30,664 nt of DNA from a virus (taxonomy: Duplodnaviria; Heunggongvirae; Uroviricota; Caudoviricetes), in IMG/VR virus record IMGVR_UViG_2802429251_000007, positions 1 to 30,664 of that record. One strand, given 5' to 3'. The translations under genes were made by a program, and so were the position numbers. Under the pieces are notes generated by a model, which was not told the DNA's origin, ran no database searches, and was given only the letters and a program-made list of their open reading frames with translations. Within the stretch, counting starts at the first letter, position 1, and every line of letters begins with the position of its first letter. This document shows positions 7,755 to 11,342 of this stretch, piece by piece.

Positions 7755-8504
7755 ATGGCAAAACCGGACTGGGAGGCCATCGAATCGGCATACCGGGCCG
7801 GAGTCCTTAGCCTCCGTGATATAGGCGAGAAATACGGCGTAACAGAAGGGGCTATCAGGAAGAGGGCTAAAAAGCTTGGTTGGGTACGCAGTGGCGGTAC
7901 GCAGGTTTGCAAAAATGGTACGCAAAAAAGAAAAGTGCGTACCAGCAGAAAGCCTGCCATTACTGACCTTACACAAAAAGGTACGCAACCAAAAACAGAA
8001 CCTACACCGGATACGAAACCGATACGCGGAATGCGTACCGATCCCCCGACTAACCCATTCCAACCCGGTAACCAGCAGGCATTAAAACACGGTGGTTATG
8101 CCCGTCGCCTTCTGCTCAAAGATGAGGTGATAGAGGATGCTAAAGCGTTGACGCTCGAGGACGAATTATTTCGCCTTCGTGCTAACAACCTTGTCGCTGC
8201 AGAGAATATTGGTCGGTGGTTGGTGTCGCTGGAAGATGCTAATGGGGACCAGGAAAGGAAGATGCTGATGGAAAATATCAGCGCCGCCGAGAAAGCAATG
8301 ATGCGCAATACAGTTCGTATTGAGTCCATCGTTGGCACGCTTGCGACGGTAGGAAAAATATTTGCTGATACAGCCTACCGCAAGGCCGCCACTGATAAGG
8401 TGTCTCTGGAGGCTGATCGTCTTCGCCGTGATGCAGGTATTGATGATGGCAATGGAGAGCGTGACCTCAATGACTTCTACTCTGACATCCAAACCGACGC
8501 TTAA
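7755..8504 (+). CDS. terminase small subunit
   Basis: N-terminal HTH-like segment (LSLRDIGEKYGVTEGAIRKRAKKLGW); immediately upstream of large terminase; GAGGA RBS. Confidence 0.7.
   Translation: MAKPDWEAIESAYRAGVLSLRDIGEKYGVTEGAIRKRAKKLGWVRSGGTQVCKNGTQKRKVRTSRKPAITDLTQKGTQPKTEPTPDTKPIRGMRTDPPTNPFQPGNQQALKHGGYARRLLLKDEVIEDAKALTLEDELFRLRANNLVAAENIGRWLVSLEDANGDQERKMLMENISAAEKAMMRNTVRIESIVGTLATVGKIFADTAYRKAATDKVSLEADRLRRDAGIDDGNGERDLNDFYSDIQTDA
7883..8039. repeat. cluster of six GGTACGCA/TGCGTACC octamers inside terS (candidate pac or terminase-binding site)
   Basis: Copies at 7883, 7896, 7917, 7980 (direct) and 7936, 8032 (inverted). Confidence 0.5.
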
Positions 8505-9873
8505 TCCGGCTTTACGTAGTTTCTGGACTACGCGGGCACGTAACAAAGTGCTTTATGGTGGCCGGTCATCGTCAAAATCATGGGATGCCGCTGGCATTGC
8601 CATATTTCTGTCGAATAAATACACCCTGCGTTTTTGTTGTGCCCGTCAGATCCAGAATAAAATCGAAGAGTCGGTGTATACCCTGCTCAAAATTCAGATA
8701 GACAGGTTTGGCCTGCGGCACCGTTTCCGGATTCTGAACAACAAAATCATTAACCGGGTTACTGGCTCGGAATTTGTTTTTTATGGATTATGGCGCAACA
8801 TCGAAGAAATTAAGTCACTGGAGGGGATCGACGTGTTGTGGCTGGAAGAAGCCCACGCACTGACTGAATACCAGTGGAAAATTCTGGAGCCAACGATCCG
8901 TAAAGAGGGTTCGGAATGCTGGTTCATATTCAACCCCGGACTTGTTACTGATTTCGTCTGGCGTAACTTCGTTGTTGATCCGCCTGAAGGCACTCTCATC
9001 CGCAAAATTAACTATGACGAAAATCCGTTTCTGTCTGACACCATGCTTAAGGTTATCGACGCGGCGCGACGCCGTGATCCGGATGGTTTTAAACATGTGT
9101 ATGAGGGCGTTCCGGAGTCTGATGATGATGCGGCAATCATCAAACTGTCCTGGATAGAAGCCGCAGTGGATGCGCACAAAACGTTAAATTTCGAACCCAG
9201 TGGAAGAAAGCGTATTGGCTTTGACGTGGCTGACAGTGGTACAGATAAGTGCGCTAACGTTTACCGTCACGGATCCGTTGTTTTCTGGGCCGACGAATGG
9301 AAGGCCAAAGAAGATGAATTACTGAAGAGCTGCCAGCGTACTTATCAGGCGGCGCTGGAGCGTGAAGCAGATATTGTTTACGACTCTATCGGTGTTGGTG
9401 CTTCTGCCGGTGCTAAATTCTCTGAAATTAACGCTGACCGGAAGAGCGAGAATGCATACGCGCGACGTGTGAATTACCAGAGGTTTAACGCCGGCGCTGG
9501 TGTGCATGAACCAGATGACGAATACAACGGCATCCCCAACAAAGACTTTTTCGCAAATCTTAAGGCTCAGGCATGGTGGCTGGTGGCTGACCGTTTCAGA
9601 AATACGTTTAACGCCATTAACAACGGAGAACAGTATCCTGTGGATGAGCTGATCAGCATAGATTCTCGTTGTCCGTTGCTTGAAAAGCTGAAACTGGAAC
9701 TGACAACACCTCATCGTGATTTCGACCGTAACGGACGTGTGATGGTCGAAAGTAAAAAAGACCTCGCAAAACGCGAGATACCGTCACCAAACGTTGCTGA
9801 CGCATTCATTATGGCCTTCGCGCCAATTGATACATCGCTGGATATCTGGGAACAGCTGGGGAGACAGGCCTGA
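8443..9873 (+). CDS. terminase large subunit
   Basis: Walker A-like YGGRSSSKS, ATPase and nuclease motifs by eye; start ambiguous (ATG at 8443, 8452 or 8470). Confidence 0.85.
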   Translation: MMAMESVTSMTSTLTSKPTLNPALRSFWTTRARNKVLYGGRSSSKSWDAAGIAIFLSNKYTLRFCCARQIQNKIEESVYTLLKIQIDRFGLRHRFRILNNKIINRVTGSEFVFYGLWRNIEEIKSLEGIDVLWLEEAHALTEYQWKILEPTIRKEGSECWFIFNPGLVTDFVWRNFVVDPPEGTLIRKINYDENPFLSDTMLKVIDAARRRDPDGFKHVYEGVPESDDDAAIIKLSWIEAAVDAHKTLNFEPSGRKRIGFDVADSGTDKCANVYRHGSVVFWADEWKAKEDELLKSCQRTYQAALEREADIVYDSIGVGASAGAKFSEINADRKSENAYARRVNYQRFNAGAGVHEPDDEYNGIPNKDFFANLKAQAWWLVADRFRNTFNAINNGEQYPVDELISIDSRCPLLEKLKLELTTPHRDFDRNGRVMVESKKDLAKREIPSPNVADAFIMAFAPIDTSLDIWEQLGRQA

Positions 9874-11342
9874 TGGCACGAAACAAACAAGCCCTGCGGC
9901 GAACTGCGCAGGCCACAGCTGATGGTTATGAGAATTTTATTGCCCGCGTAGGGATGCAGACACCTAACCAGCACTCAGCATCCACCTACCGGGCTAATTT
10001 TACCAGTCGTAACCGCATGCTGGTGGAATGGTCCTATCGTTCATCCTGGATCATCGGCGAAGCAGTCGATGCTATCCCGGATGATATGACCCGCAAAGGC
10101 ATTCGCATCACTTCGGAAATTGATGCAAAAGATCGCGGCATTCTCGAATCACAACTTGATGAGTTGCAAATCTGGGATGCGCTGAATGACGTGCTGAAAT
10201 GGTCTCGTCTCTATGGCGGTGCGGTTGGCTTCATCATGATCGAGGGGCAGGCACCAATGACCCCGCTGCGGCTCGAAACCATTGGAGAAGGCAAGTTTAA
10301 GGGCATTCTCCCGCTCGACCGCTGGATGATTAACCCGGTGCTGACCCGCCGCATTAAAGAGATGGGGCCGGATCTCGGCAAACCTGAGTTTTACGATGTG
10401 GTGACCACTGCAACGGGCATCCCGGCCTGGCGCATCCATCACAGCCGCCTGATTCGCTTCGATGGCGTCACGCTGCCATTCCAGCAGAAGATGACCGAGA
10501 ACGAATGGGGAATGTCGGTTGTAGAGCGAATCTGGGATCGGCTTACTGCGTTCGACAGCGCCACTGTCGGCGCGGCTCAGCTGGTCTACAAAGCGCATCT
10601 GCGCACCTACAGCGTGGAGAAGCTGCGCGAGATTATCGCGCTTGGTGGCCCAGCTTTCGAAGCGTTGCTGAAGAACATCGACCTGATCCGCCAGTTCCAG
10701 AGCAATGAAGGCATGACGCTCATGGACTCGCGGGATAAGTTTGAAACGCATCAGTACAGCTTCAGTGGTCTGGATGACATCCTATCGCAGTTTGCAGAAC
10801 AGATTAGTGGCGCTGTTGGTATTCCACTGGTGCGGTTGTTCGGACAGTCCCCGAAAGGATTTTCTACCGGTGATGCAGATCTTGCCAACTATTACGACCG
10901 GGTGAGCTCATTGCAGGAGCGCCGCTTACGGATGCCGATGCGCCGGATACTGGACATTATGCACCGCTCGGAACTCGGTAAGCCGCTGCCGGACGATTTC
11001 ACGTTTGAGTTTAACCCGCTCTGGCAAATGTCTGATGTCGATCGCTCAACGGTGGCGTTAAACACTACCAACGCAATCAGTACGGCGCTGGGTGATGGTC
11101 TGATGACACTGAAAGCCGCTATGACCGATTTGCGCGAAAATTCTGACGTAACCGGCATCGGGGCATCCATTACCGACGAGGACATAGAGAATGCCGAAGA
11201 CGAAGCGCCGCCAGGCATCGGCGAACTTGGCGACAAACCGCCAGAGTCGCCAGGCGGAGATCCGATATCGAACGAGCCTACGGCAGATAGCGCGGGCGGT
11301 CGGGGATATCGTAAATGGGCGCTACGATGGTTCAAACGATAG
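9873..11342 (+). CDS. portal protein
   Basis: 489 aa directly after large terminase; acidic C-terminus; GGGGAG RBS. Confidence 0.75.
   Translation: MARNKQALRRTAQATADGYENFIARVGMQTPNQHSASTYRANFTSRNRMLVEWSYRSSWIIGEAVDAIPDDMTRKGIRITSEIDAKDRGILESQLDELQIWDALNDVLKWSRLYGGAVGFIMIEGQAPMTPLRLETIGEGKFKGILPLDRWMINPVLTRRIKEMGPDLGKPEFYDVVTTATGIPAWRIHHSRLIRFDGVTLPFQQKMTENEWGMSVVERIWDRLTAFDSATVGAAQLVYKAHLRTYSVEKLREIIALGGPAFEALLKNIDLIRQFQSNEGMTLMDSRDKFETHQYSFSGLDDILSQFAEQISGAVGIPLVRLFGQSPKGFSTGDADLANYYDRVSSLQERRLRMPMRRILDIMHRSELGKPLPDDFTFEFNPLWQMSDVDRSTVALNTTNAISTALGDGLMTLKAAMTDLRENSDVTGIGASITDEDIENAEDEAPPGIGELGDKPPESPGGDPISNEPTADSAGGRGYRKWALRWFKR

Follow-up and report, generated by a model that had tools for sequence, protein, structure and literature searches.

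The window analysed here is a stretch of 30,664 nucleotides (nt) from a virus of the Caudoviricetes, positions 1 to 30,664 of IMG/VR record IMGVR_UViG_2802429251_000007. Its packaging genes have the order terS, terL, portal, and the module is headed by terS, the gene of the small terminase subunit TerS. An exact search for the octamer GGTACGCA finds a cluster of four copies on the + strand and two on the − strand, all six inside the terS open reading frame (ORF) and within a span of 157 base pairs (bp). The positions of these copies, of the TerS domains that they adjoin and of the neighbouring genes are collected in Table 1. An earlier reading of the DNA, made from the letters alone and called here the sequence-only reading, had listed four direct and two inverted octamers within terS as a candidate pac site, and all of the copies are found again at the same coordinates.

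From the base composition, 0.0048 copies of GGTACGCA are expected in 157 bp. When the window was shuffled with its dinucleotides kept, a mean of 0.74 and a maximum of four copies were obtained, and seven or more copies were reached in none of 100 shuffles. Thus the statement that the cluster lies beyond chance holds. The spacings between successive copies of the array are irregular (13, 21, 19, 44 and 52 bp). A lone extra GGTACGCA is present at 3880-3887, far from terS, and fits the chance occurrence of about one copy per genome. It should also be noted that A-rich runs (gcaaaaat, aaaaaagaaaag, cacaaaaa and accaaaaaca) are found beside several of the words, at 7905-7935, 7969-7979 and 7988-7998. 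By analogy with what has been proposed for SPP1 pac, such flanking runs may contribute to intrinsic bending.

Table 1. Features of the terS locus in the window. Percentages are column conservation among 55 distinct close relatives; structural values are from an AlphaFold2 model (pLDDT, predicted local distance difference test).
Feature	Position	Strand	Remarks
terS, small terminase subunit, 249 amino acids (aa)	7755..8504	+	phrog_370, E 3.4e-95, residues 1-248
N-terminal helix-turn-helix (HTH) domain, aa 5-41	7767..7877	+	pLDDT 80-89; weak Pfam HTH matches, residues 17-41
Recognition helix EGAIRKRAKKL, aa 31-41	7845..7877	+	helix 3 of the model; proposed specificity positions E31, G32, R35
Word copy 1, GGTACGCA	7883..7890	+	register 2, W-V-R; 99%
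TerS linker, aa 48-102, array host	7896..8060	+	pLDDT 28-48
Word copy 2, GGTACGCA	7896..7903	+	register 0, G-T-Q; 96%
Word copy 3, GGTACGCA	7917..7924	+	register 0, G-T-Q; 100%
Word copy 4, inverted	7936..7943	−	TGCGTACC on + strand; register 1, V-R-T; 93%
Word copy 5, GGTACGCA	7980..7987	+	register 0, G-T-Q; 89%
Word copy 6, inverted	8032..8039	−	register 1, M-R-T; 100%
terL, large terminase	8431..9873	+	Pfam Terminase_3, E 4.5e-38; Sf6 gp2 (4idh), E 2.7e-78
Portal protein gene	9873..11342	+	Phage_portal_3, E 7.7e-106

Conservation and codon registers of the octamer words

Exact octamer clusters occupy the same place in terS in Klebsiella phages that are about 88% identical in DNA. They are also found there in Edwardsiella Edno5, Aeromonas pAEv1818, Erwinia EhrS_49, Salmonella SEN34, E. 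coli HK639 and many IMG/VR prophages, and they stay in place despite differing copy number, spacing and TerS body. Relatives have between 2 and 11 copies. The distance from one copy to the next is not constant; it is mostly 12, 13 or 15 bp between direct neighbours, an inverted copy often comes next, and an arrangement of three direct copies plus one inverted copy is common. The core of the site is 8 bp long, (G/a)GT-NNN-CA, and its 3′ flank is biased towards A. Among the window copies, copy 6 is kept in most close relatives, and at the place of copy 5 Klebsiella-type relatives have a 7/8 match. Genome-wide, the words cluster in terS only, with 4 of 6 copies in HK639, 6 of 8 in Klebsiella phage GZ7 and 6 of 7 in the window, where 0.9-1.7 are expected per genome; the isolated copies outside terS are at chance level in all three.

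Within a set of terS genes that are 85-100% identical (L001-L085), 4 to 11 copies are present, some of them abutting as GGTACGCAGGTACGCA, and the linkers differ in length by 12-45 nt. This suggests that the array expands and contracts frequently. In the Pantoea phage PdC23 (L096:1431-1557) a GTACGCA cluster is situated just 5′ of the terS start and not in the linker, and in Pseudoalteromonas phage Y7 (PalP_Y7, L100:~1375-1420) a TTGCGCG cluster is likewise found just 5′ of the terS start. Thus the place of the array relative to terS is flexible.

The sequence-only reading had also noted that the octamers coincide with GTQ, VRT and MRT peptides, and had taken the repeat to be constrained at both the DNA and the protein level. 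The coincidence is literally true, but the copy at 7883 reads W-V-R, and three codon registers are in use among the six copies (W-V-R in one, G-T-Q in three and V/M-R-T in the two inverted copies). In Edno5 and HK639 every copy is read [LEQ]-V-R-[KT] and the GTQ peptide is absent. Among 91 distinct genes that carry the GTACGCA word, 206 copies are in register 0 of the + strand, 239 in register 1 of the + strand and 72 on the − strand. The codons that spell the word are used in 94% of the VR dipeptides of the linker, where the codon usage of these genes would predict about 4%, and in 94% of the TQ dipeptides, where it would predict about 32%. A change of word between classes alters the encoded peptides register by register, giving GTQ, GNQ, GYQ or GDQ in one register and VR or VT in another. 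Thus no motif is kept whatever the codon or register, as it would be in a protein-level tandem repeat.

Conservation of the octamers, including synonymous positions, had been proposed as a check, and its outcome favours the DNA. Conservation in the 55 close relatives is 96% for word columns and 85% for spacer columns, and at third codon positions the values are 99.6% for words and 81% for spacers (Mann-Whitney p = 9e-5). The array is real, non-random and functionally constrained, and this constraint acts on the DNA and not on the peptide. Because of the several registers, the codon bias, the third-position conservation and the low pLDDT of the linker, the repeat is best described as a DNA feature written in a tolerant coding stretch. 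Depending on how it is read, one word gives VRx, GTQ or xRT, and repetition in the peptide is a by-product; the protein-level half of the earlier statement is therefore given up.

The recognition helix and the repeated word

Members of the TerS family were gathered with a DNA pattern for D-W-E-x-I-E-x-x-Y-R-A-G, which is independent of the recognition helix, and about 180 relatives were obtained. The word of each member was determined separately, as the most repeated 7-mer around the 5′ half of terS. The repeated word varies with the residues at positions 1, 2 and 5 of the recognition helix (Table 2). Helices of the type ...TIRSRA... are accompanied by other words, TCGCGCA and TCACGCA among them. 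In all, 15 helix keys, i.e., combinations of residues at the three positions, correspond nearly one-to-one with words, and at least ten specificity classes can be distinguished. The mutual information between helix key and word is 2.58 of 2.73 bits, a value that was reached in none of 10,000 shuffles.

Table 2. Recognition helices and repeated words in the TerS family. Counts are of members with at least three copies of a word.
Helix (key)	Word	Members
EGAIRKR (EG.R)	GTACGCA	81/82
HGAINKR (HG.N)	GTATCCA	18/18
DTAIRKK (DT.R)	GTTCGCA	12/13
HATILKR (HA.L)	GTAACCA	12/13
HNTILKR (HN.L)	GTGACCA	1 member
HTAINKR (HT.N)	GTTTCCA	3/3
HTAIQKR (HT.Q) and HQAISKR (HQ.S)	GTTGCCA	4/4 each
HVAIAKR (HV.A)	GTTACCA	3/4
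HVAIHKR (HV.H)	GTTAACA	1 member

Different pairs of helix and word are found on TerS bodies that are 92-95% identical over the last 100 residues, and the EG.R helix occurs with GTACGCA in four separate clusters of TerS bodies. In these comparisons the word tracks the helix, and not the rest of TerS. The correspondence can be broken down further. Glycine or threonine at helix position 2 matches A or T at base 3 of the word, in the ..R and ..N backgrounds alike. The residue at helix position 5 goes with bases 4-5, where R corresponds to CG, N to TC, L, A or G to AC, Q or S to GC and H to AA. Thus the alignments point to a helix-word code that is modular. All copies of one array switch jointly, in any register and on either strand. 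As an example, EhrS_49 and ENT1 have near-identical TerS bodies and display VR/VR/GTQ/VRT and VT/VT/GNQ/VVT, respectively, at matching copies. In an alignment with lambda Cro (GVYQSAINK), the covarying TerS residues correspond to Cro Q27, S28 and N31, which contact bases.

The code leads to predictions for the TerS of the window. The change G32T is predicted to shift its preference to GGTTCGCA, the double change E31H and R35N to GGTATCCA, and the triple change E31H, G32A and R35L to GGTAACCA.

A related observation comes from Magnetococcales prophages in two metagenome-assembled genomes (MAGs; L242:~3880-4000 and L278:~230-370, coordinates being given in the orientation that reads GGTACGCA forward). 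Their TerS proteins belong to phrog_57 (E 4e-28 and 2e-34) and display a helix VSEGA(I/V)RK, and GGTACGCA arrays in both orientations are situated directly 5′ of the gene. The pairing of an EGA(I/V)RK helix with GGTACGCA thus recurs outside the DWE-type TerS family.

The window TerS itself has the profile match, the place before terL, the N-terminal HTH and the helical oligomerisation region of a small terminase. In the AlphaFold2 model the HTH consists of helices at residues 6-15, 20-27 and 31-41, the linker is probably disordered, and long helices are found C-terminal of it at residues 107-226; the mean pLDDT of the model is only 63, lowered by the linker. No Pfam family was found for this TerS. 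A sequence search of solved structures gave no relative, only a chance 34-residue match to Cif, and a Foldseek search of the model against the PDB gave generic coiled-coil matches, none of them significant. The database holds 2244 TerS relatives at E ≤ 1e-3. This TerS is labelled “hypothetical protein” in RefSeq chromosomes of E. coli and also in several records of Klebsiella phages. Parts of a 2-kb terS query match 510 of 5426 complete E. coli genomes, and no match covers 80% of the query. Following the linker, at 8052-8099 (TerS aa 100-115), is the motif NPFQPGNQQALKHGGY, which is invariant in close relatives and is kept in Aeromonas pAEv1818.

Word arrays in DNA without a terS gene

One genome per species was scanned for three copies of GGTACGCA. 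Most of the loci that carry the triple word were discarded as unrelated, perfectly periodic tandem repeats (Streptomyces, Nostoc and others). Seven loci show the exact 15/12-bp spacing of the family in DNA that has no TerS reading frame, and several of these consist of consecutive triplets of different words. In a Zoogloea MAG (L246:1156-1663), triplets of GGTACGCA, GGTTACCA, GGTTCGCA, GGTTTCCA, GGTTGCCA and GGTATCCA are present within 500 bp. The ORF that runs across this array has no family match, and the array was treated as non-coding. Of the 64 words that GTNNNCA allows, nine had been derived as class words from TerS helices, and all six triplet words are among these nine; by rough arithmetic the chance of this is about 1e-6. 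A small ORF ahead of the non-coding arrays (L246:769-1092) is closed by an “HGGxSTGP” motif; in TerS, the motif NPFQPGNQQALKHGGY is found just after the linker.

A like arrangement is found in four wastewater metagenome contigs (L344-L347), in Azomonas agilis DSM 375 (L302:305-1598) and in an Acidovorax MAG (L335:2833-2924), and further non-coding array loci are L264:4390-4553, L350:10960-11760 and L351:4759-5420. Undibacterium sp. RuTC16W also has an element that bears such an array. The three-copy sets carry up to about ten words, namely GGTACGCA, GGTTACCA, GGTTCGCA, GGTTTCCA, GGTTGCCA, GGTATCCA, TGTAACA, GGTTAATG, CTAAACA and GGTTACAG. No multi-word arrays were found in a scan of IMG/VR viral contigs. 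Plasmids were considered as array-bearing decoys and rejected, as the matches were only to phage-like replicons of 37-42 kb with the array inside their own terS.

A phrog_8117 protein is encoded next to the arrays and was used as a handle to find further array loci. The order of genes in L350 is integrase, O-like replication initiator, DnaB, phrog_8117, a small ORF, the array region of about 900 bp and proteins of unknown function. The array region holds at least ten different three-copy word sets. Neither TerS, TerL, portal nor capsid genes were seen in the visible part of L350. One stretch of the L350 array still reads as a TerS fragment without the HTH, and because of this the non-coding arrays look like captured pieces of terS linkers. 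Other array loci adjoin a P4-like primase-helicase, a P4-type integrase arm domain or a rolling-circle Rep, and the proteins 3′ of the satellite-like arrays gave no informative annotation.

In Zoogloea and Variovorax prophages (L348:10001-13024 and L349:10001-15615), which are without word arrays, a phrog_8117 winged-HTH protein is encoded directly 5′ of a Terminase_2 TerS, TerL and a P22-type portal. Judging from this gene order, the phrog_8117 protein may be a packaging-associated accessory protein.

The non-coding loci appear to show that the word triplet works as DNA, independently of coding. Many specificities side by side would be expected of an element that is recognised by many different terminases, and the multi-word arrays may be a library of packaging signals carried by a satellite for multiple helpers. 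Taken together, the wider proposition is that helix positions 1, 2 and 5 code the three central bases of the word, that small module swaps switch specificity, and that satellite-like mobile elements of Betaproteobacteria and Pseudomonadaceae carry libraries of up to about ten arrays, captured from terS linkers and differing in specificity, with which any one of many helpers could package them. We put it forward tentatively, as a proposition that falls somewhat short of probable.

A candidate packaging signal and its counterparts in known phages

The TerL of the window is of the headful type, the match to Sf6 gp2 covering residues 2-439 and thus nearly the full length of the protein. The terL start is not fixed, as in-frame ATG codons are found at 8431, 8443, 8446, 8452 and 8470. 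The gene overlaps the 3′ end of terS, and in annotated relatives this overlap is 50 to about 90 nt. Sf6 is a characterised headful phage. All six words lie in terS, at the head of the packaging module, and the cluster is unique to terS in the genome, as a pac signal should be.

Of the phages that share the word, Edno5 is permuted, with no termini detected by PhageTerm (PMC6372524), and for HK639 circular permutation and terminal redundancy are cited (PMC6256558). The authors of SEN34 state that its packaging sequences were not identified, and the P22 pac sequence is quoted in the same paper (PMC5261728). A literature search found no paper on the octamer in connection with terminase, nor on the pac site of a phrog_370-type TerS family. 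The record ends of the virion-derived genomes Mulock and RCIP0034/0098 were considered as pac cuts and rejected, since these ends are the annotated TerL start or conventions.

We consider it likely that the six GGTACGCA words are the cognate sites of the TerS HTH and the recognition part of a pac site. That TerS binds the words is the firmer part of this reading and is judged highly probable from the comparisons; that the words are the signal for packaging initiation is somewhat less so. Thus the candidate pac site of the sequence-only reading gains strong support as a site of TerS recognition, from the conserved clusters, the helix covariation, the uniqueness in the genome, the Sf6-type TerL and the non-coding modules, whereas initiation and cleavage of packaging at this place are proposed.

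A mechanism can be proposed as follows. Late in infection, the TerS oligomer would offer several N-terminal HTH domains, each of which would read one 8-bp (G)GT-NNN-CA word, and helix positions 1, 2 and 5 (E31, G32 and R35) would determine the ACG at its centre. By binding cooperatively to the cluster of direct and inverted words, TerS would mark the concatemer and, once bound, would recruit the Sf6-type TerL, with a cut nearby from which the headful series would start. The words are in the codons of the probably disordered linker of TerS itself, where almost any peptide may be tolerated. The comparisons show that the DNA is under constraint, that the cluster is unique, that helix and word vary together, how TerS is divided into domains and of what type TerL is; binding, its stoichiometry, any wrapping of the DNA and the place and direction of the first cut would follow from the proposed scheme.

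Several points weigh against reading the words as TerS sites of a pac signal. Its support is wholly comparative, and we infer the headful packaging of this prophage. The spacing in the window is irregular, compared with the regular 15/12 triplets of other members, and some members of the TerS family have no word at three or more copies. Helix and array are only about 40-180 bp apart, and part of the covariation could come from co-inheritance as one recombination module. In addition, the best-studied pac-type TerS is G1P of SF6/SPP1, and its single HTH domains are described as binding with little sequence specificity (PMC4737164). Word-specific reading is thus not an established rule for pac phages.

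An alternative that we consider unlikely is that the words are TerS sites for autoregulation of terS and terL, acting as operator-like roadblocks or through translational coupling, and not sites of packaging initiation. The sites are indeed within the terS transcription unit, just 5′ of terL, and the SF6/SPP1 work suggests that TerS bound at pac could regulate genes too (PMC4737164). However, arrays are also found in non-coding DNA with no terS there, beside integration and replication genes, and they are 5′ of terS in PdC23, PalP_Y7 and the Magnetococcales phages. Ten specificities juxtaposed on one element also make no sense as operators. The two roles are compatible, and autoregulation is possible as an added role.

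It is very unlikely that the words are bound by another protein of phage or host, or are a target of restriction-modification or recombination. The word does contain GTAC, but it differs between phages of one host and tracks the TerS helix, and the rest of the genomes show no enrichment of it. Nor does any other gene accompany it consistently, as TerS bodies, TerL types and the genes on either side all vary. Still less probable is an origin of the array by neutral slippage or duplication in a tolerant linker, with the helix correlation arising from physical linkage alone. The 4 to 11 copies in close relatives, the abutting GGTACGCAGGTACGCA copies and the helix adjoining the array would suit such an origin. 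It leaves unexplained why the words are repeated and the spacers are not, why inverted copies are present, why an identical word spans Klebsiella, Aeromonas and Magnetococcales although the spacers have diverged, and why the residue-base code is modular; nor does it agree with the six class words out of six in the Zoogloea array. Least credible is that the linker peptide repeat, with its GTQ/VRK-type basic motifs, is the selected feature and the DNA repeat its encoding: HK639-type genes do keep one register, [LEQ]VR[KT], and the peptide there co-varies with the helix, but one and the same word occurs on both strands and in three registers, its synonymous spellings are nearly unused, its third codon positions hardly vary, class switches change the amino acids differently in each register, the very low confidence of the linker model agrees with disorder, and arrays persist in non-coding DNA.

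Only in a few model phages are pac sites known, and to find them from sequence is difficult; the TerS family described here is widespread, its gene being usually annotated as “hypothetical protein”. If the words are TerS recognition sites as proposed, the part of pac that is recognised would be readable from sequence in hundreds of prophages of enterobacteria, Pseudomonas and others. Packaging specificity would be predictable from three residues and could be re-engineered, and targets of high-frequency transduction, including plasmids or islands with a word array, would be predictable as well. Such recognition would contrast with the sequence-independent model from SF6/SPP1, and the multi-word arrays would point to a possibly new satellite strategy that uses many helpers. 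We could not find an earlier description of either the family-wide recognition code or the captured multi-word arrays.

Among known systems, the pac of P22 is reportedly a sequence inside gene 3, and that of Sf6 is said to be in the gene 1 region. The candidate pac of the window is similarly inside the small terminase gene, and its TerL is a close relative of Sf6 gp2. However, the P22 pac is a single asymmetric sequence and not an array of words, and the TerS proteins are unrelated. The pac of P1 reportedly consists of clustered hexamers, TGATCA/G, bound by PacA within about 160 bp. It has in common with the window array several clustered copies of a short word. In P1, recognition requires IHF/HU and is under the control of Dam methylation of the hexamers, and the proteins are unrelated, whereas no methylation motif is involved here.

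The pac regions of SPP1 and SF6 (pacL, pacC and pacR, bound by G1P) also bear a likeness. They belong to headful phages, as the window array presumably does, the TerS has an oligomeric core that carries an N-terminal HTH, and pac shares sequence with the 5′ part of terS. Recognition there is attributed to intrinsically bent DNA (PMC4737164), whereas the present case implies that a distinct word is recognised through a residue-base code.

By analogy, the closest known counterpart appears to be the R sites of lambda-type cosB, and the window array would stand outside that family. The cosB of lambda has the sites R3, R2 and R1, one of them inverted, which are read by the HTH of gpNu1, and the specificities in packaging shown by lambda, 21 and N15 are set by residues of the recognition helix (PMC4669245). 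Both systems have several short sites for a TerS HTH clustered in or beside terS, an inverted copy included, and in both a small number of helix residues correspond to a small number of base pairs, with specificity differing among related phages. In N15 an extra R-like site is found inside the TerS gene, as are the window words in terS. The cos phages differ in that they have a lambda-type TerL and a separate nicking site, cosN. Here the TerL is a Terminase_3 protein of the Sf6 gp2 type, and relatives are reported as permuted and without termini (PMC6372524). The TerS belongs to a different family from that of lambda, phrog_370, the words, 8 bp long and 3 to 11 in number, are embedded in the codons of the TerS linker in more than one register, and at least ten specificity classes are present, compared with three known for lambda-like phages.

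The non-coding arrays have their counterpart in satellites. P4, SaPIbov5, EfCIV583 and PLE mimic the packaging signals of their helpers (bioRxiv 10.1101/2024.04.22.590561), with non-coding copies on small integrative elements without a terminase, and the multi-word array loci, as a putative packaging signal, have a like layout. The known satellites mimic the signal of one helper, whereas the arrays described here juxtapose up to ten TerS words.

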